A DNA stretch of 64,000 nt from Ruditapes philippinarum. Taxonomy: Eukaryota. The stretch lies in NCBI RefSeq assembly GCF_026571515.1, contig NW_026851649.1:1-64000 (forward strand). The letters are read 5' to 3'. The translations under genes and the position numbers were made by a program. The notes beneath the pieces were generated by a model, which saw only the letters and a program-made list of their open reading frames with translations, had not been told where the DNA came from and did no database searches. Of this stretch, positions 1 through 52,792 are shown in pieces. How positions within the stretch are numbered: the stretch's first letter is position 1; the number at the start of each line of letters is the position of its first letter.

Positions 1-107
1 AATATAACATTTTTAAAAGCAAAAAATTCTTAAAGAGGAGATAACTCTTGAATTAAAGATGCAATTTCATAAAAAAATTTCAGCTCTTTTTGACTAATCA
101 CAAATAA

Positions 108-795
108 TGTTATATTTGCCATGTTTTAAGCCTATTTGTTGCCAACGCAACCAATATTTTTTCAAAATAGGGAGAACAGATAAGACATGCATAATCTCAA
201 GACTGCCATCTACCCATATGTCAAGTTTCATAAAAATATTTCCAGTACTTTTTGAGTTATCACTGGATTCAGTGTATGTGTAAAATTTGCCATATTTTCA
301 GTCTATGTGTTGCCATAGCAACCAGAATTTTCAACATAGGAAGAAAAGAAAAAGACGTGCATAATCTCCAGACTGCCATCTACCCATATTACAAGTTTCA
401 TAAAAATATTTCTATTACTTTTTGCGTTAACACAGGATCCAGTTTATATGTAAAATTTGCCATATTTTCAGTTTATTTGTTGCCATAGCAACCAGAATTT
501 TCAACATAGGAAGAAAAGAAAAAGACGTGCATAATCTCCAGACTGCCATCTACCCATATTTCAAGTTTCATAAAAATATTTCCAGTACTTTTTGCGTTAT
601 CACTGGATCCAGTTTACGTGTAAAATTTGCCATATTTTAAGCCTATTTGTTGCCATAGCAACCAGAAAGCAACCAGAATTTCTACATAGGATGAAAAAAA
701 AAGACGTGCATAATCTCCATACTGCCATCTATCCATATATCAAGTTTCATAAAAATATTTTCAGTACTTTTCAAGTTATTGCGGGATCCAGTTTT
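108..795. repeat. Tandem satellite array, ~170-bp monomer x4 (first monomer degenerate)
   Basis: Direct repetition with period 170 read in the sequence. Each monomer contains the palindromic core TGTTGCCATAGCAACCAGAAT. Confidence 0.85.
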
Positions 796-796
796 G

Positions 797-872
797 TGGA
801 CGGACGGACTGACGGACTGACAGACAGACGGACGGACGGACAGACGGACAGACAGACAGACGGACGGAGGGT
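797..872. repeat. (GGAC[G/A]GAC)n tetranucleotide-derived microsatellite
   Basis: GGACGGACGGACTGACGGACTGACAGACAGACGGACGGACGGACAGACGGACAGACAGACAGACGGACGGA read directly. Confidence 0.9.
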
Positions 873-1446
873 AAACCTAAAGTCCCCTCCGGTAAACCGG
901 TAGGGGACTAATAAAAAGACTGCTCCACTCAGTGAAAATTACCTTTATTATAAATTACAAAGGATATTTATAGAAATTTTCCTGAGTTTTTTGAGTTGAT
1001 GATTAGTGTATTAAATTGAAAAGTTTATGATTCATTTCACTCATCAGGGGATAAGCTGCTTTAAAGAGAACAGTTTGAGAATGATCTTGCAAGGTTTATA
1101 TTTGTCAATTCTTAAAATGCAGAAATTTAAAGTATGAAAACTTTACGACTTTTCATATCATACATGTATATATAACAGAATTTTATGGACCTGGGTGTTT
1201 CCACCTTTTTTAAAGGAAATATTTTAGGTCACCATGCAAACATTAAAGATGTCAAGTAAAATATTAAGTTAAATTTGATATGCCTATGTATTTATCAAGG
1301 AAATTATATTTAAGGACAGTTAAAAAAATTGGTTTTAAAAAGTCATGTTTGTTTGCGAGTCAGGTAATTATGTGATATACCGTAACTTAATTTTAGTTGG
1401 TCAGGCTTTCCTTGATAACTTAGATCAGTAATTTTACCAATTTCTC

Positions 1447-3135
1447 TGTGAGCGACCAATTATAAACAAGAGGGCCATGATGGCCCTAGATCGCTCACCT
1501 GAATTATCAAACTCATCCAAACAATTACCTAGACAAGCATTCTGACCAAGTCTCATGACAGGTGAGTCAAAAATGTGACCACTACAGTGTTAACAAGGAT
1601 TATCCATATTTGAGCAGTGCGACCTAGTTTTTTACCCAGGTGACACATATTCAAACTTGACCTAGAAATCATCAAAACAAACTTTCAGACCAATTTCCAG
1701 GATACTTGGATCAAAATAGTAGCAACTAGAGTGTTAACAAGATTTTTCTATTTTTAGCTCCGGTGACCTAGTTTCACATGCGATTTCGAACTCATCCAAG
1801 CAATTACCTAGACAAACATCCTGACCAAGTTTGATGATAATTGAGTCGAAAATGTGACCACTAGAATGTTAACAAGGTTTTTCCATATTTGGGCGGTGTG
1901 ACCTAGTTTTTCATCCAAGATGACCCATGTTCGATCTTGACTTAGAAATCATCAAAACAAACTTTCAGACCAATTAACAGAATATTTGGATCACAACAGT
2001 AGCCACTAGAGTGTTAACAAGATTTTTTCTATTTTTAGCTCCTGTGACCTAGTTTTTCATCCGAAATGTCCCATGTTCGATTTATTCCCAGCAATGACCT
2101 AGACAAGTTTCCTGACCAAGTTTGATGACAATTGAGTCAAAATTGTGACCACTAGAGTGTTAACAAGGTTTTTCTATTTTTAGCTCCTGTGACCTAGTTT
2201 TTCATCCGAGATGACCCATGTTTCGAACTCATCCGAGCTATCACCTAGACAAGCATCTTGATCAAGTTTGATGATGATTGATGCAAAAATGTGACCGCTA
2301 AAGTGTTAACAAGGTTTTTCTATTTTTTAGCTCTGGTGACCTACTTTTTCATCCGAGATGACCCATGTTCGAACTCATCCAAGCTATCAACTAGATAAGC
2401 ATCCTGACCAAGTTTGATGATGATTGATGCAAAAATGTGACCACTAGAGTGTTCACAAGGTTTTTTCTATTTATAGCTCCGGTGACCTAGTTTTTCATCC
2501 GAGATGACCCATATTCGAACTCATCCGAGCTATTATCTAAACAAGCATCCTGACAAAGTTTGATGATGATTGGGTCAAAAATGTGACCACTAGAGTGTTC
2601 ACAAGGTTTTTCTATTTTTAGCTCCTGTGACCTAGTTTTTCATCAGAGATGACCCATGTTCGAACTCATCCAAGCAATTGACTAGACAAGCATTCTGACC
2701 AAGTTTGATGATGATTGGTTCAAAAATGTGACCACTAGAGTGTTCACAAGGTTTTTCTATTTATAGCTCCTGTGACCTACTTTTTCATCCGAGATGACCC
2801 ATGTTCGAACTCATCCAAGCTATCACCTAGACAAACATCCTGACCAAGTTTGATGATGATTGGGTCAAAAATGTGACCTCTAGAGTGTTCACAAGGTTTT
2901 TCTATTTTTAGCTCTTGTGACCTAGTTTTTCATCCGAGATGACCCATGTTCGAACTCATCCGAGCTTTCAACTAGATAAGCATCCTGACCAAGTTTGATG
3001 ATGATTGAGGCAAAAATGCGACCGCTAGAGTGTTCACAAGTAATTGTGGACGGCCGGACGGACGACGGACGACGGACGACGGACATTCACCGATCCTAAA
3101 AGCTCACCCTGAGCAAGCTCAGGTGAGCTAAAAAA
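1447..3135. mobile_element. Family-B satellite-carrying non-autonomous element, copy 1 (Helentron/HINE-like candidate)
   Basis: The 5' end CAAGAGGGCCATGATGGCCCTAGATCGCTCACCTG matches the 5' end of the second copy at 26161. It is followed by an internal tandem array and a (GGACGGAC/GACGGAC)n microsatellite at 3047-3085. The 3' end is the hairpin AGCTCACCCTGAGCAAGCTCAGGTGAGCT plus an A-run, matching 27424-27438. Confidence 0.6.
1700..3045. repeat. Tandem array, ~146-bp monomer (about 9 copies), preceded by a ~300-bp higher-order variant
   Basis: Marker GTGACCACTAGAGTGTT recurs at about 1848, 2149, 2291, 2437, 2583, 2729, 2873 and 3019. That gives spacing 301, 142, 146, 146, 146, 144 and 146. 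Confidence 0.85.
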
Positions 3136-3578
3136 CAATATGTTAATTTCTATATTTAAGTTTGAAAGATTACAATGTATACCAAAATATAAACAAAGTT
3201 ACTATGATTTATCATAATTATGTTATTACAGCATTCTTACATATAGTTCCCAAAGCAACTTTCAAATATTATTCTTACAAAGTAGGTTATTAAATGGCAT
3301 ATGTTTGAATGATTTGATACACAATAACTTATAAATTTGAGTTTTTTTTTGTTTGTTTGTTTGTTTGTTTTTTTTTCTTCCAGGATTAATTTTCAAACGT
3401 CATTATCAGACCCCTCAGGCAATATGTATATTTAAGTTTTGAAGGGGCCTTATACACATTGCTACATATCTGATCTATTCAGCTACAGGTCTTTTATGTT
3501 GGGTGTATATTTCCATTTTTTCTTATTGTATAGATTTGAAGGGAATGCTTCAATTGTTGAAGATATTACTCAAACAAA

Positions 3579-4481
3579 ATGGTACGAGACAGACTGAAAG
3601 AGTTACAGGAAAAACATGAACAATTTTGCAAGAATGACAACCACCAGACAGAAGGAGGTAAAATTGTCGCACGTTATTCAAACTCTGAAATACAACTTGA
3701 CTTATGTCTCCATAAAGTGACACAAATAAGTAAAAAGATAATCGCAATAACAAATGACGTAGAACATTTAGAGCACCTGCAAAAAGACATCATAGCAAAT
3801 CCATTATTAGATCACAACGAAGTTGTGCGGCTCGAAAGATCGTCTGATGTAATATTCAATACATCGGCTGCGATACAGAAAGAAATAAGTGAATATCGAG
3901 CAGAGGTGGTTCAGATGCAGATGCAAAAGTCTCACGAAATTGTGATTAAGAATCATCTAAACAAATTAGAAAGTGATTTAACAAAAGCGAGAAATGATTT
4001 CAGAGCGGCACAAGTAGATTATATAGAAAAGACCCAAAAATTACATCAGAGGGAGTACGACATAATGACAGGACATGATGATGATCACCATGACGACCAT
4101 GACAAAACCCACTCCCCATTACCTGCAGAGTTCCTAGGTGATTATTTTGTCCAGGCCGAGGATGCAAAAGCAGAACTACGTGAAATCAAGGCTAGAGATA
4201 AGCAGATAAAGAAAGTTGAAGAAAGCGTGATTCAAGTGAATCAACTATTTAAAGAAGTTAATAGTTTATTAAAAGAGCAAGGGGAAAAAATTGATACCAT
4301 AGAGAAACATGTGGAGAACAGTGTGGACTATGTGCAGGAAGCAAATGTTGGATTAAAGCAAGCAAAGAAATACCAGAAAATTACGAGGAAACATAAAATA
4401 TATTGTGTGGGTGTTTTAGTGGCTATATTAGCCGTTACTGTACTTCTTGTTGTCATAGTGATTACTTCTCAAACAGATTAA
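3579..4481 (+). CDS. Syntaxin-1-like Qa-SNARE (t-SNARE), complete and intronless, 300 aa, C-terminal TM anchor
   Basis: The N-terminus MVRDRLKELQ resembles syntaxin-1 MKDRTQELR. The SNARE motif IKARDKQIKKVEESVIQVNQLFKEVNSLLKEQGEKIDTIEKHVENSVDYVQEANVGLKQAKKYQKITRKHKI aligns with syntaxin-1A [72 protein letters not shown]. A hydrophobic tail IYCVGVLVAILAVTVLLVVIVI precedes the stop. The whole protein sits in one ORF. A (GTTT)n run and a TTCTTCCAG acceptor-like site lie upstream (3330-3385), so a 5'UTR intron is possible. Confidence 0.85.
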   Translation: MVRDRLKELQEKHEQFCKNDNHQTEGGKIVARYSNSEIQLDLCLHKVTQISKKIIAITNDVEHLEHLQKDIIANPLLDHNEVVRLERSSDVIFNTSAAIQKEISEYRAEVVQMQMQKSHEIVIKNHLNKLESDLTKARNDFRAAQVDYIEKTQKLHQREYDIMTGHDDDHHDDHDKTHSPLPAEFLGDYFVQAEDAKAELREIKARDKQIKKVEESVIQVNQLFKEVNSLLKEQGEKIDTIEKHVENSVDYVQEANVGLKQAKKYQKITRKHKIYCVGVLVAILAVTVLLVVIVITSQTD

Positions 4482-4639
4482 ATTAACCGATAGATAGCAA
4501 ATATGTGTTTGAACATAAATTATTAAACAAAAAGAAGTGTAAACAAGCAATTATCATAGTATTGCAAGCAATCCATAAGTCCCCTACCGGTTATAACCCC
4601 ATCAACATTCTGAAGGGCCATTTATTGGAAAAGTTCTTT

Positions 4640-5635
4640 AAAAGTGATCACAGGAAACAGTTTTTATGAACAGACAGACAGACGGACTGAAGGACACTCT
4701 AAGTTAATATTTGAAACATCCCTGTTACCAAAATATAACATTATTAAAAGCAAAATTCTTAAAGAGGAGATAACTCTTGAATTAAAGATGCAATTTCATA
4801 AAAAATTTCAGCTCTTTTTGACTTATCACAAATATTGTTATATTTGCCATGATTTAAGCCTATTTGTTGCCAAGGCAACCAATATTTTTTCAATATAGGA
4901 AGAACAGATAAGACATGCATAATCTCAAGACTGCCATCTACCCATAAGTCAAGTTTCATAAAAATATTTCCAGTACTTTTTGAGTTATCACTGGATTCAG
5001 TTTATGTGTAAAATTTGCCATATTTTCAGTCTATGTGTTGCCATAGCAACCAGAATTTTCAACATAGGAAGAAAAGAAAAAGACGTGCATAATCTCCAGA
5101 CTGCCATCTACCCATGTAAAAAAGTTTCATAAAAATATTTCTATTACTTTTTGCGTTAACTCTGGATCCAGTTTATGTGTAAAATTTGCCATATTTTCAG
5201 TCTATTTGTTGCCATAACAACCAGAATTTTCAACATAGGAAGAAAAGAAAAAGACGTGCATAATCTCCATACTGCCATCTATCTATATATCAAGTTTCAT
5301 AAAAATATTTTCAGTACTTTTCAAGTTATCGCGGGATCCAGTTTTGTGGACGGACGGACTGACGGACAGACAGACAGACAGACGGACATCCGGCCGAAAT
5401 GGAATAAGGGGCCATTTCATTTGTTATTTTCTATTGTTTAATAAAGGGCCAATGGCCCCTTACTCTATTGTTAGGGAATGAACTCTATTGTTAGGGAATG
5501 AACTCTATTGTTCTCTTTTGTTCTGTTTACAGTTAGATTGCCCCCTTTCCTTATTCGGTAATGCGGACAGACAGACGGACGGAGGGTAAACCTTAAGTCC
5601 CCTCCGGTAAACCGGTAGGGGACTAATAAAGTACA
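4640..5635. mobile_element. Family-A satellite-carrying element, copy 2 (direct repeat of 1-915)
   Basis: 4730-5010 aligns base-for-base with 3-290. Three ~170-bp monomers run 4838-5340. A microsatellite at 5340-5390 is interrupted by a 170-bp insert carrying 3x GAATGAACTCTATTGTTAGGG (5466-5530) and resumes at 5565-5585. The terminal hairpin AGTCCCCTCCGGTAAACCGGTAGGGGACT lies at 5596-5624. Confidence 0.6.
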
Positions 5636-6272
5636 AACCAACTTGATTTTGATTTCTTTTTTTAAGGTTAAATCAAGTAATCAATAAATACTATAAATGC
5701 AACCTTATAGAAGATATTATTCGCATTTATCATCAGTTTTCAAGAAAAGTCATATGTAACTTATTAAGTTGAGCTGTTTGGAGGAAATCTTCCATTCTTT
5801 TATTATTTTTTTTTGAAAAATTCTAAAGATAAAACTGTCAAGTTTTAGCAACTAGTTTTAGTTTTTAGCAAAATACAAAGCCTTTATTTAGCCTCTTTAT
5901 CATGCAAAACTAAATTAACAAGAGTCATTTATTTCATTTGACTTATCCCATGCATGAATCATGTTGTTTTTGTTTTTTTTAAGTTAAACACAGTTAACAA
6001 TTAACACCCCTCCAAACAAGGAACATGTGCTTTGAAAATTTAACACTCTTAATAATATATTTGAGCTGCGCCATGACAAAACCAACATAGTGCGTTTGCG
6101 CAGCGCAGTCTGATCAGAATCCATGCTGTTTGCAATCAATTTCTCTACTTGTAATAGGGTTTGTAAGCAAACAGCATGGATCCAGCACAGATGCGCAGGG
6201 TGGTCTGGATCCATGCTGGTTGAAAACGCAATATGTTGGTTTTGTGATGGCGTGGCTCAATTATGTACTCAC

Positions 6273-6413
6273 TATTTCTAGAGTTTCAACATCCCCTTTT
6301 ATATCCTCAATAAACTCAGACAGAGTATTGTATATGTCCTCTGCCTGAACCATAGAGCAACTTTCCTGAATCTCACCTCTCTTAATAATATCTTTCACTA
6401 TAGCTATTGGGTC
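6273..6413 (-). CDS. Probable further 3' exon of the same gene
   Basis: Acceptor is TATGTTTTCAG|GAC and donor is GAAATA|GTGAGT. The exon is 141 bp, phase 0. Translation DPIAIVKDIIKRGEIQESCSMVQAEDIYNTLSEFIEDIKGDVETLEI. Confidence 0.4.
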
Positions 6414-6726
6414 CTGAAAACATAATAACACATATAATCATGAAGATGAATATAAATAAGCTCATTAAAAAGTCTTTATTATCATATTCTAAAATCATGA
6501 AAAGTTTAAATAAATTTTATTCTGTAGTGTTTTTAATCTGCTATAAAAACAAAATATCTATAATGGAATATTTAGCATCAGTCATGTTCTAATTGTAAAA
6601 CAGTTCAAGACCCTTTAGAATCAAATAAATTTTCTACATATAGGTCTTACAAAAATGTTGTTTTATCACTGAAAACAGTAAAATAATGCAACCTGAAGTG
6701 AATGTTTTAACTAATTTTTTGTATAC

Positions 6727-6837
6727 CTCATCTTTATCTTCAACACCTGGTTTCCAGCTTATGTATGGTAAAATGTCCACTGTTTCCTTCTCAATGAGAT
6801 CAGCTATGGAAGGAATTATGGAAACATCATGTTCATC
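6727..6837 (-). CDS. Probable further 3' exon of the same gene
   Basis: Acceptor is TTACTATTTTCAG|GAT and donor is GATGAG|GTATAC. The exon is 111 bp, phase 0. Translation DEHDVSIIPSIADLIEKETVDILPYISWKPGVEDKDE. Confidence 0.45.
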
Positions 6838-7639
6838 CTGAAAATAGTAACCAAGACATTTAATTACCAAGCTTAATTTGTACTATTACTCCAGATACAT
6901 ATAGTAGAGTTCTATATGACTAAAAGCCTTAGATAATAACAGTGTTCCCCTTTAAAAGTTCTGTTAAAGGGATTCCACTGAGGGTGTTTTTTTGACGATA
7001 TTGAAAATCATTTCTCTAGAATCTATTTGATGTAGGTCTATACTAATCAATAGGGATGGCAACGAATACCAAAATCAATACTCGAGTACTCGGTCATTTT
7101 TCCGATCGAGTACTCGGTTACTCGGATGATTTCCAATGATCTCACGATATCAACACCGTCTGCATGCTACTTTCGTTTTCTATTTTAATTCATAGAATTC
7201 GTAACTATAAATAGGACTGCAAGAAATACATATATAAATATAAACATAAGAAATGTCAATGGCAACATTTATTATATACCTTCAAATTTTCTCCCTAAAA
7301 TACAGGATGAACTTGAAGCGCAAATACGCTTCAACGGATAGAAAATTCCGTATTATGGTTAGTGACAAATACGGTACGATATATGGAAGTGCCGGACTAT
7401 TTTTGACGTTGGTTCCGATCTTAGCTGTGTATAAACGTAGCATTTGGAAACGGAAACCAAAATTATAAAAGGCGTGTACGGTTTTGCAAAATTACGTATT
7501 CATCCGTTGGTCATAAATTTATTTCTCGACAGCTACATTTCATTTTCTGAAACTTCTTATAGAAGTGAAGTTTAATGAAAATCATTTATAATTCAAACGA
7601 AAAGGTATATAACAAGAGCTGTCAGAAGGACAGCGCGCT

Positions 7640-8530
7640 CGACTTTTTTAGTGCTTGCCTATAAAACAAAACTTTGACAGTTAAGGGCACACAAGACTTT
7701 AACTAGGAATTTCTAAGTACAAATCAAGAAACATTTTCACAGAGTTATCTTCTCTTGCTTACAGATAGGTCTCATGATGGCACATAAGAACTCCAACTTC
7801 CAAAGTAATATCTCAAATGGTTAAGTCAACAAGTGGACAAGAATGAAAATCTTAACTGAGTTTCTAAGTCAAAAAGGGCCATAATTCAAATAAAATCCTT
7901 AACAGAATTACCTTCTCCTGCCCATGTTTTGGGACCATGATGGTAAACAAGTATTCCAACTTTCAAATTAATATCTCAAACAGTTCAGTCAAAAAGTGGA
8001 CTGGTACTAAAAACTTAACCAAGATTCTAAGTCGATAAAAGGCCTTAATTTTTAAAACAAATCCTTGACAGAGTTACCTTCTCTTGCGTACAGATGGGGG
8101 TAATGATGTGAAATAGCATTAAAAGTTTCAAAGCAATATCTCAAAGGGTTAAGGCAATAAGTGGATTTTACCCATATTCAATGTATTTTCTAAGTCAAAA
8201 AGGGGCATAATTCTGTCAAAAACCTTGACAGAGTTATGTCCTCTTGTCTGTTGATGAAGGTCGTGATGGTAAACAAGTATGGTCAGTTTCAAAGCAATAC
8301 CTCCAATGGTTTTGAAATAAAGTGAGGTGGTACAAAAAACTTAACCAAGCTCAATACACTTTCTAAGTCAAAAAAGGGCCATAATTCTGTCAAAAACCTT
8401 GACAGAGTTATGTACTCTTGTCTGTAGATGGAGGTTATGATGGTGAACAAGTATGGTAAGTTTCAAAGCCATACTTGTAATACTTCTGAAATAAAGTGGG
8501 GTGGTACGAAAAACTTAACCAAGGTGTGAC
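7640..8530. repeat. Internal tandem array of the hAT element, ~166-bp monomer (about 5 copies)
   Basis: Marker CTAAGTC(A/G)A(A/T)AAAGGGCC recurs at about 7865, 8029, 8190 and 8362. Confidence 0.8.
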
Positions 8531-8534
8531 GCCA

Positions 8535-8572
8535 ACGCCGACGCTAACGCCGACGCCGACGCCGGGGCGAGT
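8535..8572. repeat. (GACGCC)n-like hexanucleotide microsatellite
   Basis: GACGCCAACGCCGACGCTAACGCCGACGCCGACGCC read directly. Confidence 0.85.
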
Positions 8573-9461
8573 AGGATAGCTCCCCTTTTCATAGAAAAGT
8601 CGAGCTAATAAAAGGACAAATATGTTGTAGCCTATGCATTTTTCTACTCGCAATGTTGGAAAATTGATATTTCGCTCGACCTTCGGTCTCGTAAGATATC
8701 AATTTTTCCACCACGTTTATACAATTAACAAGTTTCGGCTACAAACTGTCTAATAGTTAAAGGTGGTTAAATATCATAAGAGGCCGAATGACGTAAACGA
8801 CACAGGACTGGGTTCAATCCCATACGCGTGTCAAAATGCTGATCGCATCGTTAAACTTACGATATCATATTCACACCTCTGGAAGGATGTTTTGATTGCA
8901 CTTAACAAGTATTTATACAATAGATACGTGTACATTTCCGAATTTCTGAACTAATCTTTCTAAATGGCAAAAAAAAGTAGAAATTATTAATTTTTTTTTT
9001 CGAGTAATCGAATATCAATTTTGTTAACCGATATTCGGACATTCGATCGAGTACTCGGTTAATCGGTTACTCGTTGCCATCCCTACTAATCAAATAATTT
9101 CTGTGCAAAATTTCAGATCATTCCCTCACTCAGCTTTCCAGAATATATATTCTATTTGTGAAGATTGACCCAAGTTTGAGAACTGTTTCAATGCTTTTCA
9201 CTCAATTTTGGCTATGAATAGCACTAAAATATGATTCCTTGTTTATTTCTGAGTATATTTCTTAATTATCTTTTGCATTTAAGTGCCCAAGCTGATCTAT
9301 GTAAGAAATTCAAACTTTATGTTTTGACATATTTGGGATTCAGTGGAGTTACTTTAAATGTAAAAACGTCAAACAATAATAATCAGAATAATAATCTTAA
9401 TATTTGACAGAGTTCAAAACACATGGTAGTTTAAAGAAATTGTGTTTTCACACAATATTAC

Positions 9462-9563
9462 CTGATGCCTGTCCTCTATTGCCACAAAGCTGGTGTATGG
9501 AGTCACTATACTGTGTTTCTTACTCAAGTCAATGATGTACTGTTTCCTCTCATTTTTGATCAC
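9462..9563 (-). CDS. PARP4-like exon (C-terminal region)
   Basis: Acceptor is CACTTACTAG|GTG and donor is CATCAG|GTAATA. The exon is 102 bp. Translation VIKNERKQYIIDLSKKHSIVTPYTSFVAIEDRHQ. The VTPYTSFVAIED motif resembles the VTPLTSMV segment conserved after the VWA domain in the ITIH/VWA5A family. Confidence 0.6.
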
Positions 9564-10115
9564 CTAGTAAGTGAAAAGAATGATAGATAAAATCTTATGT
9601 CAAATTGTGATGAAATTTTCATCGAAACAAATTACAAATTATAAGATGCTGTATAAATCTAAATGGCCATGATGGACCTATCAATGCTAACCTTTAGAGA
9701 AAACTACCTTGCTTATGTTCAATAGAATGTAAACATAATCTGAGCATAAATCAACAAGATACCGTATTTGCATTTAACAACCCCCCCCCCCCCTACTAGC
9801 GCCACAAACCACATATTATAGAAGAAAAAGATCTTAAAATCTTACCTTATAGATTTATAAACCATGATGAATGAGCAATTAACAAAAAACAATTAAGGAC
9901 ACTCCATTAATGTTAAATCATTATAAAAGATAATCCTGTATTATATATATAATCATAATATTCAATGATTTTTTTAATTGAATTGTAACTTAAATTAACA
10001 TATTTTGAAGCATATTTTTATAACCACGACAAAATACGTGCATGACCATGCCATACCATTGTAACTGAGTCGCAAAAGCAGCACAGCAATGTGATATACA
10101 TGTAAATAGATTTAC

Positions 10116-10196
10116 CTGATGTTTGATCCTGTCATCGTCCAGGGTTCCATTCTCATAGTCTGTAATCACTGCCCTAGCTGTTAACTGATGTAACAT
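10116..10196 (-). CDS. PARP4-like exon (C-terminal region; acceptor ambiguous between 10196 and 10184)
   Basis: Donor is CATCAG|GTAAAT. Translation ...LTARAVITDYENGTLDDDRIKHQ. Confidence 0.45.
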
Positions 10197-10482
10197 CTGT
10201 AACATGTTTTATATATTAATATAAAATGAATAGCTTTAAACATTTCAATCAAAAACCACATTCATAAAAAACATAAATGTAGTTTTCTAACAGTGAGTCA
10301 CCAGATTATTGTAGTTCATACACAGACAATGCATAAAAATATATAAGGATGTAACAGCAGACTTTTATTTTATACACATGCAATGCATAGAATTATCCAA
10401 AGATGTAACATAAAAAGGAATATATAATAAAGTTAAGAATAAATTAAATATATTTAAGGTCAATTAGCATGAAGAAAATGCA

Positions 10483-13437: not shown

Positions 13438-13984
13438 CTGTAATACAAACATGATATACTCAATTCATAAATTAATGTAATACTATACTGTGGTATATTT
13501 TCCTATAGGTAGTGTAGACCAAGAGCTAAACCTTTTAAGAAAATAATCCCCTGAACATATTTATTGATCTAAATATCCATCAAAATGCACCTCTGACAAT
13601 CCAGAGCCAAAAATTAGCATCTTGGGGTGCATGCCCCAGACCTCTACCCCATATAATTCAACATTCCTGTAAATTTAAAATAAGCTATGCCCCTCCTGTA
13701 ATTTTGTTTAAATGTAACAGTAAAGTTTTGCTATATTGGTATAGTCCTAAAAGATAACAACCTTTAGTGTTGAAGATACAGCTCAAATCACTACATATGC
13801 GTGCATAATCTAAACCAAAAGATGAACAACATGCAATTTGAAGCCAAAAATTTTAACTTGTCTGCCAATAATTCATTTTCAAACATTTCTTATCTTTTGA
13901 AAATGACAAAGTTTGTTCTATCTTAAGGTAATTTTCTTGTCTACAAAGTTAAAATGGAAATAACACTAGACTAAAATGTCTTAC

Positions 13985-17924: not shown

Positions 17925-18610
17925 TCATTTACACCATGCCATATAGCTTTACCCCATGCCAAAAAGCTTTATATCATACCATATTTCCCTACACCATTCC
18001 ATATAGCTTTACATTATGCCATACAGCTTTACACTATACCATATTGCTTTACACTATGCCATATAGCTTTACACTATGCCATACAGCTTTACACCATGCC
18101 ATATAGCTTTACACTATGCCATATAGCTTTACCCATACCATGTAGCTTTACACCACGCCATATAGCTTAACACCATGTCATATAGCTTTACTCCATGCCA
18201 TATAGTTTTACTCCATGCCATATAGCTTTACACCATATAGCTTTACTCCATGCCATATAGCTTTACACTATGCCATATAGCTTTACTCCATACCATGTAG
18301 CTTTACACCATGCCATATAGCTTAACACTATGTCATATAGCTTTACTCCATGCCATATAGTTTTACTCCATGCCATATAGCTTCACACAATATAGCTTTA
18401 CTCCATGCCATTGCCATTTAGCTTTATCCCATGCCATACAGTCCATGTCATATTTCTTCATATCATGCCATATTTCTTTATCCCTTGCCATATAACTGTA
18501 CACCATGCCATATAGCTTAATCCCATGCCATATTGCTTTATCCCATGTCATATAGCCCATGCCATATTTCTTAATATCATGCCATATTTCTTTTAACCAT
18601 GCCATGTAAC
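17925..18610. repeat. 21-bp minisatellite, consensus CATGCCATATAGCTTTACAC(C/T), about 32 copies
   Basis: Direct tandem repetition, period 21. The periodicity produces the spurious ORFs 17895-18170, 17912-18106 and 18363-18605. Confidence 0.9.
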
Positions 18611-24831: not shown

Positions 24832-26160
24832 CTGACAATACATGTACATTGTATCAGTACAATAAATACAGGATATGGAATGAGTGTAGGTTTAATACTT
24901 AATTTATTGAACAAGTTGAATAAAATCATATTAAGCGAGCCTCAATAAATTTAGTATTGAATCTACACAAATATAATATTCTGTTTATCACATACATAAA
25001 ATAAGAACGGGAAACTGTTAAAAAGAGCCATATTTCATTAAAGGCCAATGGTGTAGCACTAAAATTAGCGCACTTAAATGCTATGTTTATATATAGCGCA
25101 AATGACGTCACGCCAAAGTGTTATTACAATAGTGTAATATCATTTTTATCAAATAACTTTATTACACTCATGTGCTGCGCTTTATGTGATAAAAGGTATT
25201 TTGAAATAAATCTCTTAACACCAATGAAAACATAAGACATGGAAACAATTTTTTTATTATATACAATTTTGGCCAAAATTTTAAGTTAAAAAGGTCAATA
25301 ACTCCAAAAATATTGCTTTTAGAATTATGCCCCTTGTGTTATAACTGAACATTGTCATGTTAAGATAGTATTCCTATTTACGTGTAAATATACTCCCAAA
25401 ATAGAACAATAAAACAAAAGAAAATGGGTTGGGCAACAAGTTCTAACAACTTTTCATTAATCCCTTCCCAGAAATCTTTGTCTTATAAAGGGTGTTGCTA
25501 TACAGAGGCTGTACTTTAGTATCTAATGCAAAAACAACAAATATTTCAAACTAAATAGACTGGTACCTTATTATTGTCAACTTGAGCATTCTGTGCATAT
25601 AACCTGTACCTGAACTGGCAGTCCAGTCTGGTGGCAACATGTACCTCCAATGCTTCCATTTTCTTTGTCTCCTGTGAATACAACATAAGGTAAATGACAG
25701 TCAAAAACAAAATTCATTTTCAGTTGAATACTTTTTTATAGGAATTGATTTTTTTTTAACTTTTAAATACATCAGTAAAAAAAGAAATGTCCATGGACAG
25801 TGCTCTACTTTACTGAGTGCTGGAAAGTTAAATACATTTGTAAAGGCAACATAGAAAAAAGGGTATAACATTGCAACAAGATAATTTTAGGATTATCTGC
25901 CCTTTTGAAACAGTGCCTTTTTATGGCAATAAACATGTACAATGTATACCAAGTTTAAAGTGAATAGCTTTTATAGTTTCTGAGAAAATAGACCTTAATA
26001 AAACAGTCAGACAATGCTGACGCCAATGCCAAAGAGAGGGTTATGACAAATAGCTTCACATTTTTCCCCCGGAAAAGTGGAAATGACAACAGATACCAGA
26101 GTCTTATAAAACCATCTTTGAAATATTCTAAAATAAGTCTATGCAGTAGGACTAACAAAA

Positions 26161-27438
26161 CAAGAGGGCCATGATGGCCCTGAGGTCGCTCACCTGTATA
26201 TAGGCCCCCCGGAGCCGGGCCAGTTTAAATCCAAGGCTTTTATTTGAACAAACTTGGAAGACACCCATTAGAAGATGTTTCATGATGTTAAGTTTTTACT
26301 ACACACATAAAATGAAAAACATTGCCCCCCCCCTCCCCCCCGTTTAAACCCCAGGGCTTTTATTTGAACAAACTTGGTAGACACCCATAAGAAGATGTTT
26401 CATGCTAAACATCTAAGCTCTAGCTCATTGGGTTTTTCAAAAGAAGATTTTTTAAGTTTTTACTATACACATATAGCAAAAAACAATGACACCCCTGGGG
26501 CGGGGCCAGTTTGCACCCCAGGGCTTTTATTTGAACAAACTTTGTACACACTTACTAGAAGATGTTTCATGCTTAATATCTAAACTCTAGCTCTTTGGGT
26601 TCTTTAAAAGAAGATTTTAAGTTTTTGCTACATTGTATACACAAATAAGGAAAATCAATGACCCCCAGGGGCGGGGCCAATTTTGACCCCAGGGCTTTTA
26701 TTTGAACAAACTTTGTAGACACTCACTAGAAGATGTTTCATGCTTAATATCTAAACTCTAGCTATTTTGGTTTTTTAAAAGAAGATTTTTTTAAGTTTTT
26801 GCTATACACATATAAGGAAATCAATCACCCCCGGGGGAGGGCCAATTTTGACACCAGGGCTTTTATTTGAACAAACTTGGTAGACACCCATTAGAACATG
26901 TTTCATGCTAAATATCTTAGCTCTAGCTCTTTGAGTTCTTTAAAAGAAGATTTTTTAAGTTTTTACTATATGCATATAGGGAAAATCATTACCCCCTAGG
27001 GCGGGGCCAATTTTGACCCAAGGGCTTTTATTTGAACAAACCTGGTAGACACTCATTAGAAGATGTTTCATGCTAAATATCTTAGCTCTAGCTCTTTGGG
27101 TTCTTTAAAAGAAAATTTTTTAAGATTTTGACCCCAGGGCTTTAATTTGAACAAACTTTGTACACACTTACTAGAAGATGTTTCATGCCAAGCTCTTTGA
27201 GTTTTTTAAAAGAAGATATTTAAAGTTTTTTTCTTTTGGTTGCCATGGCAACCAGAGTTCTGCATGGAATTAAATTCTTTGAACAATTTTTAAAGGTGAC
27301 CACCAAAGGAACATTCCTGTGAAGTTTGGATGAAACTGGCTAAGTGGTTTATAAGGAGATGTCATTTAAAGTAAAAGTTTACGGACGGACGACGGACGAA
27401 AAGCGATCACAAAAGCTTTGTGACAGGTGAGCTAAAAA
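26161..27438. mobile_element. Family-B satellite-carrying non-autonomous element, copy 2
   Basis: Same 5' end as copy 1 (CAAGAGGGCCATGATGGCCCTGAGGTCGCTCACCTG). It has an internal ~168-bp tandem array, a (GGACGGAC)n stub at 27380-27400 and the 3' end CAGGTGAGCTAAAAA. The 3' region also contains TGGTTGCCATGGCAACCAGAGTTCTGCATGG, related to the family-A monomer core. Confidence 0.6.
26225..27215. repeat. Tandem array, ~168-bp monomer (about 7 copies, two truncated to 120 bp)
   Basis: Marker GGGCTTTTATTTGAACAAAC recurs at 26233, 26353, 26521, 26691, 26859, 27018 and 27138. Confidence 0.85.
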
Positions 27439-27579
27439 TTTGCTGTTACAGAAACATAAGGCTTTTTAAAATTTTCAACTTATCTCAAGATTATGGAGAC
27501 AGTATTTGTTTGTTAATATCTAATTCATTTTCTAAATCTTTAACAATAACTTTGAGTTTATGTAAGATAAAACATATAC

Positions 27580-27740: not shown

Positions 27741-28350
27741 CTATGTAAAACAAAAAACAAAAATTTTCAATGCCAGCTCATACAATATGTTTTCGCAACA
27801 GTTTAATGTTAATGGCACATTGTGCCTCAGAAATGGATCATTCACTGCAAAAATGAGTTTTATAATGTTCAAATAACTTGGGGCATGGGAGCATGGGGGA
27901 TGAATAATTAAAATGTATGCTTACTTGTTCATTTTGTATTTGAATCCTTACTTTTAGTTACTGTTTATTTGTTATACACAGACTCATTTGACAAAATCTA
28001 GTAACTCTATGTCTGCTTTTACGGAGTAAAATTTTGTACACAAATGACAAATTATTGAAATTTTTTGCCTGGTATCCGGAATATCTATTTTCTGGTTTTA
28101 TAAAGATTTTCATACTATGTAAAAAGAAGGACAAACCAGTAAAGCTTGAAGTCGCCGTATGACTTTTACATTGTTGGTGTGACTTAAAATTTTACTTAGG
28201 TCACAATTATGTTTCATTTAAACTCAAATAATAAAATAAAATAAAATCTTCAGCTTTCTCAAAACTCAATCTTAAATAGATATGTCTAAACAAAAAATAA
28301 TAAAAGAGTTGTCTTCATTCCTTAATTGATGTATCGTAAATAATTCTTAC

Positions 28351-28549
28351 TCTGAATTTTTCCTTTCCCAAACTCCTGATTATTGTTGATGTCCGCTAAC
28401 CTGTATTTGCCAGTATCAAGGAGTCTATTTTTAGTAACACATTGTTGTACATATTTTGGGCTCACCACAGGAATATTATGCCTGTTACACTGCCGTAACT
28501 TGTATGAAATACTTGTGCCTTTCTTGTTGAAAACAACAAAAAATGAAGC
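28351..28549 (-). CDS. Exon of the same unidentified gene
   Basis: Acceptor is TATTTTTCAG|GCT (phase 0) and donor is TTCAGA|GTAAGA (1 nt overhang). Translation ASFFVVFNKKGTSISYKLRQCNRHNIPVVSPKYVQQCVTKNRLLDTGKYRLADINNNQEFGKGKIQ. Confidence 0.4.
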
Positions 28550-29058
28550 CTGAAAAATATAGCAAAAATGAATTGATATTATACATGCAAACATAACTAA
28601 TATTCTGAAATCTTGTAAATTGTTTAAAACCACTGATAGATCATACTCTAACCTTTTATTTGAATAACAATTGATTTAACCACAAACATACTGACATGTG
28701 CTTTTTTGTTAACAAAATTTTGCGGTGAAATTCTTTTTGTATCCACTATAAATCAAATACATGTAATTAGAATAAGACTATTCTATGCATTGAAACAAAA
28801 GAAAACAATTTGTTAGGAAATTCATACCTTCCATATAAAAATCTAAATCTGATATCCCACAATTTCAATAACCAAGTCAATTTCTTTATCCAGTAAACTT
28901 AACAGTTCTTTAGATTTTCCCCACAACAACTGATTCAGGATCAGAAACAAAACTGAACACATCAATAAGTTTGTTAAATTTTCCCTTATGATAATCATGC
29001 TAATTTAGGTAGAAATTGGTGCAAAAGAACAAAACAAGTGAGATTTTTTTTTTGATAC

Positions 29059-32657: not shown

Positions 32658-34517
32658 TTAATATTGTTTTTCAGTTCTCCAAAAAAACACTGTTTCTAAA
32701 TTATATGAGAAAACAATATTGATTGATAAAAGAAAAGAATGTAATTTTGACCATAAATTTTGTACAATAGTACATTCCCAAAAAAGATGGTAAAGCGTTT
32801 CTAAATTGCTACCACAAAAATCACATAGATTTGAATTACAAAGGCTATACTTAAATAACATTGTATTAGTTGGAATAAGTCTATGAATAAATTTGTATTG
32901 AAAATTTCTCAATGACACGTCTGTAGTACTTTTAAATGGAACCATATATATTTTTTGCCAATCCAACTCAGTTTCTATTTCTTTTTCCCATTTCTCTTCA
33001 TTTGTATTTTTGAACCTTTCATCATTTTCAAGTTGAATATTATATAAAAGCTTATTTGTAGATTTTGATTTTTTAACTTTATTTAGGAGTGTATCTTGTA
33101 CTTTGTTATAATTTCTTGTAGATTTCAGACTATTAAGATATCCTTTTGGTATATTATTCACAAGCGTGTAATATTTTAAAAACTCAGCATTTTCCATACC
33201 ATAGATATTTTTAAGGTCTTCAAATTTGTAGAGTTCATTTTTCCTATAATCATATAGATGTTCTAAATATAGAATACCTTTTTGATGCCATGTTTTATAG
33301 TACACCAATTTATTATCAATTTTAATATTCGAATTATTCCATATTATTTGTTTAAGGTTATCTTTTTTATTATTGTGTTCTTGTTGAATATGAAACCATG
33401 ACGAAAGCACATTGTTTACAAATGAATTATGAGGAAAAAGCTTATTGATATCTGATTTCGAAAGATTACAGTCAAATATAAGGTCATTTCCATATTGTTT
33501 TATCTTTTGATTTATAAAAAGTTTCCATAATCCTTTATTGTCCTCATTTATATATCGTTTGACCCAATTTGCCTTTACTGCATTTAAAAAATTATTAATA
33601 TCGATCATTTTTAAACCACCATTTTTAACATTAAGTTTTAATGTTTTACGTTTGATTTTTTCTGGCTTGCCATCCCAAAGAAACAAAAACATTGCTTTAA
33701 TTATTTCTTTTATCTTATTACTTGATGGGTTTTCTAAAACTGAAAATGGATACAACAGTTTAGGTAAGGCAAATGTTTTTATTACCATCACTTTACCCAT
33801 AAGGGTCAGTTTTCTGTGTTGCCATTGTTTTAAGCAAATAAAAAAGTTTCTTAGTTTTGGTTCTAAATTTATATCTGTATTTATTTTGTAATTAGACGAG
33901 AAAAGAATACCTAGAGTTTTTGCTGAATCAGATGTCCAATTGAATTTTTTATATTTACAATGTTCTATATCACTTTTTGTGAGCGATCCCACTCGTAGAA
34001 CTGTGGATTTTTTTGTATTAAGTTTTAAACCAGAGATTTTGCTAAATTCCGTTATGACATATACAAGTTTTTCAAAAGACTTCACTGATCCATCATTAAC
34101 AAATGTTGCATCATCTGCAAAAAAGGATTGCTTTATTGTTTTGTTCGCGATTTCTATTCCTTTAATTTCACTATCTTTTTCTATGAAATTTGATAATATT
34201 TCTATACATAAAATAAATAATGAAGATGATAATGGACATCCCTGACGTACTCCCCTTTCTATATTAAAAGACTCTGAAAAATGTCCATTATTGATAACTA
34301 TACTTGATATATCAGTATAAAAGATTTTAACCCATTTTATAAGATCTTTGCCAAAATTAAATTTATTCAGTGTATCAAATATAAATTGATGGCTTAGACT
34401 GTCGAATGCTTTTTCATAATCAGCAAAGAATAATAAACCCGGTTTATTTTCTTTCTGCAGATGTTCAATAATTTCAAAAATCAGCCTTACATTTTCACCA
34501 ATATATCTATTTTTCAT
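32658..34517 (-). CDS. LINE ORF segment 3: reverse transcriptase and C-terminal domain (619 aa open)
   Basis: GENVRLIFEI...YEKAFDSLSHQF...FADDATFVNDGS... Confidence 0.85.
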   Translation of the reverse strand: MKNRYIGENVRLIFEIIEHLQKENKPGLLFFADYEKAFDSLSHQFIFDTLNKFNFGKDLIKWVKIFYTDISSIVINNGHFSESFNIERGVRQGCPLSSSLFILCIEILSNFIEKDSEIKGIEIANKTIKQSFFADDATFVNDGSVKSFEKLVYVITEFSKISGLKLNTKKSTVLRVGSLTKSDIEHCKYKKFNWTSDSAKTLGILFSSNYKINTDINLEPKLRNFFICLKQWQHRKLTLMGKVMVIKTFALPKLLYPFSVLENPSSNKIKEIIKAMFLFLWDGKPEKIKRKTLKLNVKNGGLKMIDINNFLNAVKANWVKRYINEDNKGLWKLFINQKIKQYGNDLIFDCNLSKSDINKLFPHNSFVNNVLSSWFHIQQEHNNKKDNLKQIIWNNSNIKIDNKLVYYKTWHQKGILYLEHLYDYRKNELYKFEDLKNIYGMENAEFLKYYTLVNNIPKGYLNSLKSTRNYNKVQDTLLNKVKKSKSTNKLLYNIQLENDERFKNTNEEKWEKEIETELDWQKIYMVPFKSTTDVSLRNFQYKFIHRLIPTNTMLFKYSLCNSNLCDFCGSNLETLYHLFWECTIVQNLWSKLHSFLLSINIVFSYNLETVFFWRTEKQY

Positions 34518-34530
34518 AAAACCAGTTTGA

Positions 34531-35883
34531 TTAAAACTTATTATAGACGGCAGAACTTTTTTTTATTCTATTTGAAATTGTTTTTGTTGCAAGTTTATAA
34601 TCAACATTGAGCAAGCTTATTGGTCTCCAATTTGAAATATCTGTAAGATCTTTATCCGGTTTAGGAATAAGGGATATTATTCCTTGTCTTTGAAGTGTTG
34701 TTAATTTTGAAGTATCAAAAGAGTAATTAATGGAAGCTAGATAATAGTCTTTTATGCTATTCCAAAATAATTTATAGAATTCAACTGTTAAACCATCAGA
34801 TCCTGGACTTTTATTATTTTTCATTTCTGATAAAGCTATTTTACATTCATATTCATTAATTTTCCCTTCACATGTGATCTTTTCTTCTTCATTTAATAAT
34901 TTTATATCTGTATCAAAAAAATTAATATTTGAGTTTTGAGAAGTTCTATATCTATACAAACATTCATAAAAGGATTTTTCTTCTTTTAATATTTCTTTTA
35001 TTTCTGTTATTTCTTTATTTTCTACTTTTAATTTATGTATAACTTTTTTCTCGGCTTGTCTTTTTTCTAAGTTTGCAAAATATTTACTATTTTTTTCGTT
35101 ATGTTCTACATGAATAGCTCTTGCTCTTAAAATTGAGCCATTTACACGATATTCATAAATTTCATCAAGTTTTTGTTTTTTTAATAAAATTTCATTTTTT
35201 AACTTATTTTCATCTTCACTTTCTTTATAGGAATCAATTGTTAGTATTTTTTCTTCTAATTGTTTTATTTCATCGATCAAATTTAACTCTTGTTCTTTTT
35301 CTTTCTTTTTCTTAAAACTTGCATAACGTATTGTTTCATTTCTTATTGCACCTTTTATTATTTCCCACAAAGTATTTGGATTTGATGTTTTATTTATTTC
35401 TGCTGTTGTTTGAATAATTTCTTTAATTTGACTTTGATAAACTTCATCTAATAATAAAGCACTGTTCATTTTAAAGTATCCAGGTCCTTTTTGCATTGCA
35501 TTATCATTAAATGTCAAAGTAACTAGAGAATGATCTGTTTTAAAGCCATGTGAAATATTACTTTTTGAAATGATGTTTCTAAGCGAATCGGATATAAGAA
35601 AGTAATCAAGTCTACAGTATATGACTGGTTTTCCATTAGAGTGCCATGTAAATTGCCTCTTTTCAGGGTGTTTAAAACGCCAAATGTCAATTAGATTACA
35701 TGTTTCAATTATGTTTTTTATCTTATCTCTACATTTTCTACTTGTATGAAGATTTCCATTCTTTTTATCCAAAGATGTATTAATTACTGTATTGAAATCG
35801 CCACCGATTAAAATGTTCTTGTCGTCATTTTCAAGAATAAACTTTTCAAGTATATCAAAAATATATATGTTATCATCATTTGG
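34531..35883 (-). pseudogene. LINE ORF segment 2: AP-endonuclease C-part, linker and RT N-terminus (same frame as segment 1; ends at homopolymer frameshift)
   Basis: ...GGDFNTVINTSLDKKNGN...YCRLDYFLISDSL...ISNWRPISLLNVDYKLATKTISNRIKK. Confidence 0.75.
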
Positions 35884-36222
35884 TCAATAAATATTAATCA
35901 TTGTGAAATCCTTGTCATTTATTTTTACATCAATCATTATTAATTTTCCTATAATCAATTCTTTTTTATTTAAAATTTTAATATTACAATCGTTTTTAAT
36001 CAAAAATGCAACGCCTGCTTTGTTAGATTTATTTCCACTGAAAAAATGTGTGCCATTCCATTCATTTTTCAAAGGTTCATATGGATTTGTTAAGTGGGTT
36101 TCTTGTAACATATAAATAGAATATGGTTGTGAATCCAGCCAATTAAATAATTGTTTTCGTTTTTGACTATTTCCTAACCCTCTAACATTTAAAGTAATTA
36201 TTGTAGTTTCCATGAAGAGCAA
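35884..36222 (-). CDS. LINE ORF segment 1: AP-endonuclease N-terminal part (ends at in-frame TGA)
   Basis: MLFMETTIITLNVRGLGNSQKRKQLFNWLDSQPYSIYMLQETHL... Confidence 0.8.
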   Translation of the reverse strand: MLFMETTIITLNVRGLGNSQKRKQLFNWLDSQPYSIYMLQETHLTNPYEPLKNEWNGTHFFSGNKSNKAGVAFLIKNDCNIKILNKKELIIGKLIMIDVKINDKDFTMINIY

Positions 36223-52544: not shown

Positions 52545-52792
52545 CCAGACGGCGACAATGCGACAGTGCGAAAGTGCGATGACGACAATACGACAGTGCG
52601 ATGACAATAATACAACATTGCGATGACGACAATACGACATTGCAAAGCCGACAGTGTGATAATGCAATGTCGAACATACGATAGTGCGATAGTACATCGC
52701 ACTGTCGTTTTGTCATCATCGCTCTGTCGTATTGTCGTCATAGCACTGTCGTTTTGTGGTCATCGCAATGTCGAATTGTCGCCCTCTGGACT
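52545..52792. repeat. Palindromic minisatellite / foldback: ~22-bp unit (GACGACAATACGACAGTGCGAT)n on the left arm, reverse-complement units on the right arm
   Basis: CCAGACGGCGACAATGCGACAGTGCGAAAGTGCGATGACGACAATACGACAGTGCGATGAC... mirrors ...GTCATCGCACTGTCGTTTTGTGGTCATCGCAATGTCGAATTGTCGCCCTCTGG. Confidence 0.8.

Follow-up and report, generated by a model that had tools for sequence, protein, structure and literature searches.

A 64,000-nt stretch of Ruditapes philippinarum DNA from the 72.5-kb contig NW_026851649.1 (hereafter the window; all coordinates are on its + strand) carries a syntaxin-like gene between copies of satellite-bearing mobile elements. We consider it highly probable that this is an ancient gene nested in an intron of a PARP4-like host gene, and that the flanking elements, which are non-autonomous Helentron-type elements (HINEs), are later and separate insertions. 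A sequence-only reading of the locus had proposed an intronless, syntaxin-1-like gene that either landed there as a retrogene or was captured and mobilized by a rolling-circle element. The locus is already annotated and ordinary, and nothing that we found indicates a recent retroposition or a capture of the gene.

The coding sequence (CDS) is complete and uninterrupted, as had been read from the sequence, and its product is exactly RefSeq XP_060575273.1, “syntaxin-like [Ruditapes philippinarum].” Its orthologue in Mercenaria mercenaria (P0003, 70% amino acid identity) is encoded by one 915-nt coding exon and lies inside a minus-strand gene, the 3164-aa product of which contains BRCT, PARP, VIT, and VWA domains, identifying the host as PARP4-like. 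BLAST showed that the window and the Mercenaria locus (L001) are co-linear: the syntaxin gene is followed by three minus-strand host exons in the same order, position, and orientation (Table 1). Further along the window, a minus-strand open reading frame (ORF) with a weak BRCT_2 match, below the Pfam cut-off, fits the N-terminal BRCT domain of a PARP4-like protein and would place the 5′ region of the host at ~28.6 kb. Searches of protein databases with three long minus-strand ORFs of the window gave no matches, and those with three host-exon peptides conserved in Mercenaria returned only short ENA fragments. The orthologous locus, which the sequence-only reading had itself named as a comparison that could speak against it, therefore has the gene at the same site, in the same intron and orientation, and with the same single coding exon. 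Past the syntaxin gene, in the stretch leading up to the first of these host exons, Mercenaria carries 44 copies of an 80-bp tandem repeat (L001 14365-17938), compared to ~1-2 related units in the window.

Between the CDS in the window and that of Mercenaria, the proportion of synonymous differences (pS, Nei-Gojobori) is 0.76, i.e., saturated, and that of nonsynonymous differences (pN) is 0.164; omega is about 0.08 against the closer locus L006, presumed to be venerid. The saturated pS, the low pN, and the synteny together indicate that the gene is old, under purifying selection, and long at its present site. As this residence is far longer than the 5% divergence between the two family-A elements (A1 and A2, described below) allows, these elements did not bring the gene. 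The segment would be intronic DNA of the minus-strand PARP4-like host gene of R. philippinarum, with a predicted functional syntaxin-like Qa-SNARE gene on the opposite strand. A single exon would hold the entire CDS of this gene, and a 5′-UTR intron with an acceptor ~45 nt before the ATG probably precedes it. Both the single coding exon and the location would be ancestral, older than the Ruditapes/Mercenaria split. Three HINEs in the same orientation (A1, B, and A2) would have entered A/T-rich DNA near the gene separately and much later, B at 444 bp upstream of the ATG and possibly inside the 5′-UTR intron, A1 at 2.7 kb upstream, and A2 from ~60 bp past the stop codon, just beyond a putative ATTAAA signal. 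Compared to nested genes in general, a small gene in a large host intron, on the opposite strand and with its position conserved between genera, is nothing unusual.

The whole CDS lies in one exon at every family locus that we retrieved (in Ruditapes, Mercenaria, Mactra, and Dreissena, and at L006, L008, and L009). The description of the gene as intronless thus holds for the CDS, but the gene itself probably has a 5′-UTR intron. A polypyrimidine tract followed by YAG occurs 4-50 nt before the ATG at 11/11 family loci. In the window, the candidate acceptor is tattgtatag/A at 3533/3534, with which the coding exon would begin at 3534, 45 nt before the ATG, and the similarity to L006 starts at 3516, around this candidate. 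The acceptor suggested previously at about 3380 (TTCTTCCAG) is a possible alternative, although its position is not conserved in the other family loci. Further, the R. philippinarum paralogue in clade 2 (the closest paralogue clade, about 50% identical to that of the window) has a RefSeq isoform X1 that equals MTETDVSSKS plus the isoform X2 protein, and the genomic sequence after the CAG at its locus (L002) encodes exactly “SKS-M,” fitting use of the L002 acceptor in the isoform model. The conserved acceptor near the ATG and this isoform model suggest that the gene is probably not strictly intronless; its likely structure is a non-coding or alternatively coding exon 1, an intron, and then an exon with the entire CDS. 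Loci L006 and L007 were considered as possible transcripts and rejected as such, since L006 is genomic, with SINE-like DNA and an acceptor-like tract upstream, and neither provides evidence of expression.

At the other end, a search for poly(A)-signal hexamers from the stop codon to A2 gave a single ATTAAA, ~15 nt before the putative boundary of A2. Neither of the retrogene hallmarks that the sequence-only reading had suggested looking for rises above chance around the gene: a poly-A tract is missing from the DNA that separates the stop codon from A2, where the longest A-run is A5 at 4529, and the longest words shared between upstream and downstream DNA, as would be expected of a target-site duplication (TSD), are 8-mers (3 observed vs. 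1.5 expected, with a shuffle maximum of 11). Their absence excludes only recent retroposition, as old retrogenes lose such marks. A scan for bacterial-type promoters and terminators was set aside as having no bearing on a eukaryotic locus, and Rfam and tRNA scans gave no matches.

Old retrogenes typically have such a structure, in which a splice acceptor shortly before the ATG opens a single coding exon. Vertebrate STX11 and STX19, in which the whole CDS lies in one exon after a non-coding exon, are generally seen as old derived copies; they lack a transmembrane anchor and are lipid-anchored via Cys-rich tails. The clam gene is similar to STX11 and STX19 in its single-exon CDS, but unlike them encodes a transmembrane helix, and the origins are independent. 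It is possible, although we regard it as rather doubtful, that the clam family was likewise founded by retroposition, in that a retrocopy of a canonical multi-exon plasma-membrane syntaxin gained an upstream non-coding exon, at least at the depth of heterodont bivalves and possibly, in view of the Pinctada and chiton relatives, of molluscs, and that later copies, including the venerid clade in the PARP4-like intron, arose via DNA-level duplication. Such an event would concern the deep origin only, and is compatible with an old nested gene and later HINE insertions. Every retrieved member has both the single coding exon and the acceptor 5′ of the ATG, and the family is distinct from syntaxin-1 (~70 bits to Stx1A; only 37 representatives below 1e-30 in the profile search described below). 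That the acceptor is kept near the ATG in both clades would favor a DNA-based spread after the founding event. However, the hallmarks of retroposition cannot survive so long, and the introns could just as well have been lost in another way. In the literature, we found nothing specific on intronless or retrogene syntaxins or on Helitron gene capture in bivalves.

HINEs and DINE-1-like elements are defined by a 5′ subterminal inverted repeat (subTIR), which lies 2-4 nt from the terminus, an inverted repeat (IR) complementary to it, a (GTCY)n microsatellite, and central tandem repeats, and at the other end by a 3′ subTIR, at a distance of 38-60 bp from the terminus, with a palindrome beyond it; they insert into T-rich targets without a TSD (PMC4067079, PMC7492417). 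The Cg_HINE of Crassostrea gigas carries Cg170/BIV160-type satellites (PMC7492417, PMC4067079, PMC5139131). With inverted repeats of 11-15 nt near both ends as the subTIR criterion, families A and B in the window are HINEs, which makes more precise the earlier identification of Helitron-type (i.e., rolling-circle) satellite carriers. Similar to the oyster elements, they have a hairpin-forming subTIR and IR, (GTCY)n, tandem repeats of 145-175 bp, a 3′ subTIR, and a candidate 3′ palindrome (in B), with apparently T-rich flanks in which no TSD was seen, and they are scattered in gene-rich DNA. They differ from Cg_HINE in belonging to other sequence families, in a venerid clam, and in the weak 3′ palindrome of family A. 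Among the ORFs of at least 90 aa in the window, none encodes the Rep, helicase, or endonuclease of an autonomous Helentron partner.

A1 and A2 align from 1-615 to 4732-5344 with 95.0% identity over 616 columns, co-linearly and in the same orientation (BLAST E = 0). Compared monomer by monomer, the arrays of A1 and A2 agree at 95%, as against 81-87% among the monomers of one array, which indicates that both arrays derive from a single master array. The satellite of 170/171 bp, with 4.0 units in A1 and 3.0 units in A2, is followed in both by a (GGAC/AGAC)n microsatellite and then by an identical 39-nt terminal region with a hairpin. BLAST detected no other family-A copies within the 64 kb. The pairing of two co-linear family-A copies is therefore as had been described, but the limits previously given (1-915 and 4640-5635) become 1-912 and ~4542-5627; in particular, A2 reaches further left, as indicated by an 18-nt inverted repeat (4575-4592/5610-5627, 94%). 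Likewise, the family-B satellite element is present, with its left end moved from 1447 to 1465. B contains a 145-bp satellite of 8.6 units (1785-3040), together with an array of period 290 that begins at 1510; a microsatellite, (GACGGAC)n, and then a hairpin at the terminus come next. The inverted repeats of B (1493-1502/3119-3128) match at 10/10 positions. On the element strand, the microsatellites read (GTCC/GTCT)n in A and (GTCCGTC)n in B. For A1, A2, and B, the hairpin formed by 5′ subTIR and IR has a folding energy of −10.2 to −11.8 kcal/mol (z about −5), and no shuffled sequence folded equally well.

The 5′ termini (912 in A1 and 5627 in A2) are placed by six otherwise unrelated marine metagenomic contigs, found in a scan with the subTIR of A, in which this 5′ end recurs (T-rich flank/ATTAGTCCCCTACCGG, loop, IR, TAGGTTT, and (GTCY)n) and which are similar to A at this end only. 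The 3′ terminus of B at ~1465 follows from a B-type copy in Mercenaria, which matches B from AACAAGAGG onward; the 3′ palindrome of B (z −2.5) is kept in that copy as AGGACCATGATGGTCCT. For A2, the 3′ terminus would lie at 4542, where the same AACAAG is found as in B and at a similar distance from the 3′ subTIR. Past the 5′ termini the flanks of A1 and A2 are unrelated, for which reason we rejected a tandem or segmental duplication as the source of the two copies, and the DNA at the 5′ ends is T-rich in A1, A2, and the metagenomic copies. No TSD was seen at the putative boundaries of the A and B elements. As A2 and B each have their own pair of subTIRs, they are self-contained elements, and the gene lies outside both. 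This bears on a second point that the sequence-only reading had named as telling against itself, namely that the family-A copies might be independent insertions: A2 and B have termini of their own, A1 and A2 adjoin unrelated DNA at their 5′ ends, and none of the elements includes the gene.

Two further features of these elements were observed. The microsatellite of A2 is split by a 177-bp insertion that is absent from A1 and resembles a miniature inverted-repeat transposable element (MITE), with imperfect terminal inverted repeats of ~20 nt and an internal 20-bp repeat (x2.5). In addition, each B monomer (1751-2923) contains TTTTTAGCTCCTGTGACCT, which is ~79% complementary to AGCTCAGGTGAGCTAAAAA in the 5′ subTIR region of B, and this likeness hints that the satellite unit derived from, or mimics, the element terminus.

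Several observations weigh against an old nested gene with unrelated later insertions. The 3′ palindrome of A2 is weak (5-bp stem, z −1.1), and, with its 3′ terminus placed by analogy with B, 4542-4731 could be the remnant of an older element. Transcription, the acceptor, and the poly(A) site are predictions from sequence. A second R. philippinarum protein (XP_060569858/9), encoded on a 759-kb contig, is 96% identical in amino acids, with ~12/300 substitutions; as ~12 replacements look high for alleles at an omega of about 0.08, this second copy may be a recent paralogue. Finally, the Mercenaria gene has a similar HINE arrangement, with a B-type element 2.9 kb upstream and a HINE with a 169-bp satellite 1.3 kb downstream, in the same orientation as in Ruditapes. 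We infer that this arrangement reflects independent insertion and coincidence in HINE-dense DNA. Orthology of the B-type elements was considered and rejected, as the elements are ~70% alike despite saturated synonymous sites, no alignment extends into their flanks, and the copy in Mercenaria adjoins a repeat that recurs at L001 8920-9025 and is absent from the Ruditapes site. The same observations, together with the density of satellite arrays (four in L001, over 21 kb, and five in the window, over its first 28 kb), argue for independent HINEs in the two species. An insertion preference for A/T-rich gene flanks, or some shared history, possibly lies behind the arrangement in both.

The weak terminator of A2 and the second gene copy also count in favor of a capture of the gene. 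In such a transduction, rolling-circle replication would start from the 5′ end of A2, read through its weak terminator, and stop at the palindrome of B or A1, carrying the syntaxin gene as cargo and creating either the present copy or the second R. philippinarum copy. The three HINEs are co-oriented, the 5′ end of A2 and the 3′ end of B or A1 bracket the gene in the correct polarity, and the differences between the two 96% identical proteins, encoded on different contigs, appear high for alleles. Against this, the present locus is ancestral, since Mercenaria carries its gene in the syntenic position; both A2 and B possess a complete pair of subTIRs; and the unit 3140-4640 occurs once in the window. 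The second copy may also be a haplotig or a segmental duplicate, as observed for the two Dreissena genes, whose duplicated block spans at least 20 kb (see below). We therefore hold the earlier proposal of a gene captured and mobilized by a rolling-circle element to be very improbable for the locus, and there is similarly scant likelihood that a composite Helentron, from the 5′ end of A2 to the 3′ end of B or A1, produced the XP_060569858/9 copy by read-through. If true, it would mean that a whole functional gene was recently mobilized by a non-autonomous Helentron in an animal. The other proposed origin, in which reverse transcription of the spliced mRNA of a multi-exon syntaxin gave rise to an insertion here in the Ruditapes lineage, has an uninterrupted CDS and a non-LTR retrotransposon with a reverse transcriptase (RT) ORF in the same window in its favor, but is extremely unlikely given the syntenic Mercenaria orthologue of the same structure, the saturated synonymous sites, the lack of a poly-A tract or of a TSD above chance, the conserved acceptor-like signal before the ATG as in all paralogues, and nearest paralogues that are themselves single-coding-exon genes, with no multi-exon parent among those retrieved.

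Returning to the old nested gene, its product is a plasma-membrane-type Qa-SNARE with a 0-layer glutamine, an Habc bundle, and a transmembrane anchor. The 300-aa protein begins with an N-peptide (MVRDRLxEL), followed by the Habc region (~32-164), a disordered linker rich in His and Asp (165-190), a SNARE motif with the 0-layer residue Q234, and a transmembrane segment (~275-296). Pfam matched the SNARE domain (PF05739) at 1.4e-12 over residues 236-287, and the Syntaxin N-terminal domain (PF00804) at 20.7 bits, under the cut-off of 26.7. Q234 and D4-R5-L6-E8 of the N-peptide are invariant among 18 family members, and the 0-layer sequence EQGEKID aligns with ESQGEMID of Stx1A. The AF2 model (pLDDT 73) consists of a confident Habc bundle (helices 32-73, 79-112, and 117-164; pLDDT 82-94), a disordered linker, and a single long helix that joins the SNARE motif to the transmembrane segment; at the tail, a basic KKYQKITRKHK is followed by IYCVGVLVAILAVTVLLVVIVI, modeled as a continuous helix to residue 298. 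Foldseek matched the model to the Habc domains of rat Stx1A and squid syntaxin-1 with TM-scores of 0.84-0.91 and root-mean-square deviations of 1.5-2.2 Å, and Sso1 was also matched. Thus, similar to syntaxin-1A (PDB 3c98, 1ez3, 4jeu), squid Habc (1s94), and yeast Sso1/Sso2, the clam protein has the N-peptide DRLxEL, the three-helix Habc bundle, the SNARE motif with a glutamine in the 0 layer, a basic stretch next to the membrane, and a transmembrane anchor at the C-terminus. By analogy, it would act as a plasma-membrane-type t-SNARE, with its N-peptide binding an SM protein and Q234 entering the four-helix bundle.

Despite the “syntaxin-1A-like” names, the protein appears from its sequence to belong to a separate and divergent paralogue family, so that the label syntaxin-1-like, taken as orthology to syntaxin-1, does not stand. 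Syntaxin-1A is its best solved relative (2.7e-18), yet at only ~70 bits and ~20% identity, and the clam protein further differs from it in the N-terminal domain score under the Pfam cut-off and in the clade-specific linker rich in His and Asp (GHDDDHHDDHDKTH). Orthology was judged here from scores and clustering. A profile search of 1.84 billion representatives returned 37 below 1e-30, with general syntaxins at ~120 bits, and the named relatives included two Pinctada imbricata proteins (KAK3091753 and KAK3091974) and a “syntaxin-like” protein of the chiton Liolophura sinensis (XP_064605674), which indicates that the wider family reaches beyond heterodont bivalves. In a neighbor-joining tree without bootstrap, the window protein, the second Ruditapes copy, P0002-P0004, and P0011 form one clade, sister to clade 2. 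This clade, with its His/Asp linker, has so far been seen in Ruditapes, Mercenaria, and contigs of presumed venerid origin; the earlier suggestion of a lineage-specific SNARE paralogue is therefore borne out as a lineage-restricted clade, and not as the outcome of recent retroposition or capture.

Single coding exons are found in clade 2 at the loci of Dreissena polymorpha (L003 and L004), Mactra antiquata (L010), Mercenaria (L005), and R. philippinarum (L002), as well as at L008 and L009, which represent a more distant relative. The clade-2 gene of Mactra is nested in a minus-strand CoA-transferase gene (PF01144, OXCT1-like), and in Dreissena L004 a CoA-transferase gene lies ~9 kb downstream, so that a family member is found for a second time antisense in, or next to, a conserved host gene. 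This link of clade 2 to a CoA-transferase gene suggests that the venerid clade arose by dispersed duplication, and the acceptor kept close to the ATG in both clades would favor duplication at the DNA level over the RNA level. Two instances of more recent duplication were seen in the family. The Dreissena loci L003 and L004 (CM035917 and CM035924) encode an identical protein (dS 0.089, dN 0) and lie in duplicated, co-linear DNA that extends for 20 kb or more with 93-98% identity. At the Mercenaria locus L005, a partial tandem duplicate (13493-13738), corresponding to the C-terminal third of the CDS, lies just downstream of LOC128558241, a dispersed Mercenaria copy whose protein has degenerate-looking substitutions.

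Table 1. Features of the R. philippinarum window, with corresponding positions at the Mercenaria locus L001 where available.
Feature	Position	Strand	Remarks
HINE family A, copy A1	1-912	-	Truncated by window start; 3′ end beyond window
A1 170-bp satellite, x4	114-798		
A1 microsatellite	798-868		
A1 IR	881-892		AGTCCCCTCCGG
A1 5′ subTIR	897-909		CCGGTAGGGGACT; 5′ terminus ...AAT at 912
HINE family B, complete	1465-3135	-	3′ terminus AACAAG at 1465
B 3′ palindrome	1472-1486		GGGCCATGATGGCCC
B 3′ subTIR	1493-1502		GCTCACCTGA
B 145-bp satellite	1510-3040		
B microsatellite	3045-3084		
B IR	3101-3114		
B 5′ subTIR	3116-3129		AGCTCAGGTGAGCT; then A-run
Candidate acceptor, earlier proposal	3381-3383	+	Possible alternative, from sequence only
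Candidate 3′ splice site of 5′-UTR intron	3511-3533	+	ttccattttttcttattgtatag/A; putative
Syntaxin-like Qa-SNARE CDS	3579-4481	+	300 aa, ATG to TAA
Part of CDS aligned to Mercenaria	3599-4462	+	L001 10021-10884, 73% nt
ATTAAA	4522-4527	+	Putative poly(A) signal
HINE family A, copy A2	4542-5627	-	Putative 3′ terminus AACAAG at 4542; 5′ terminus 5627
A2 3′ subTIR	4578-4590		AGTCCCCTACCGG
A2 171-bp satellite, x3	4842-5348		
A2 microsatellite	5349-5387, 5565-5585		
MITE-like insertion	5388-5564		
A2 IR	5596-5607		
A2 5′ subTIR	5612-5624		
Units related to 80-bp repeat	6246-6419		
Host exon	6723-6846	-	…YFQDEHDVSIIPSIADLIEKETVDILPYISWKPGVEDKDEV…; L001 18468-18591, 83% nt
HINE	~7850-8615		
Host exon	9459-9563	-	VIKNERKQYIIDLSKKHSIVTPYTSFVAIEDR; L001 19716-19829, 86% aa
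Host exon	10107-10199	-	QMLHQLTARAVITDYENGTLDDDRIKHQ; L001 20481-20585, 84% aa
20-bp minisatellite	17928-18605		~32 units
HINE with termini close to B	26158-27440		165-bp satellite
BRCT_2 ORF	28322-28633	-	Weak match
Non-LTR retrotransposon ORFs	32658-36222	-	
Two 22-bp arrays	52561-52781		Adjoining
Non-LTR retrotransposon ORFs	54196-56492	-	
Second RT fragment	54800-55351		
Non-LTR retrotransposon ORFs	59284-60328	-	No Pfam match

Besides A1, B, and A2, the introns of the PARP4-like host contain two more HINEs in the window (Table 1) and three in Mercenaria (L001 2311-2760, 5806-7135, and 12190-12915). In 8/8 of these HINEs (five in the window and three in Mercenaria), the microsatellite and 5′ hairpin lie at the right end, so that the elements are oriented with the sense (minus) strand of the host, a possible orientation bias. 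The HINE at 26158-27440 has termini nearly identical to those of family B (AACAAGAGGGCCATGATGGCCCT…TCGCTCACCTG on the left and …GTGACAGGTGAGCTAAAAA on the right) and a different satellite of 165 bp, in which 27127-27147 matches the published BIV160 primer apart from 3 mismatches. The combination of B-type termini with another satellite indicates that termini and satellite cargo are modular, which resembles the modularity described for oysters.

Other repeats were found further along the window. Three groups of minus-strand ORFs are of non-LTR retrotransposon type, and one such element is near full length, with RVT_1 and zf-RVT matches in ORFs of 619 and 413 aa. The two adjoining 22-bp arrays are mutual reverse complements (CGACAATACGACAGTGCGATGA/CATCGCACTGTCGTATTGTCGT).

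The locus shows that a gene bracketed by direct copies of rolling-circle elements can arise in HINE-dense bivalve DNA without capture, the spacing of satellite-bearing HINEs at the Ruditapes and Mercenaria loci being only a few kilobases, and current understanding would be unchanged unless the second Ruditapes copy were a product of transduction. The gene itself belongs to a distinct single-coding-exon Qa-SNARE family in bivalves, with a close chiton relative, the members of which tend to nest in introns of unrelated hosts and in which the clade with the His/Asp linker has been maintained under purifying selection.

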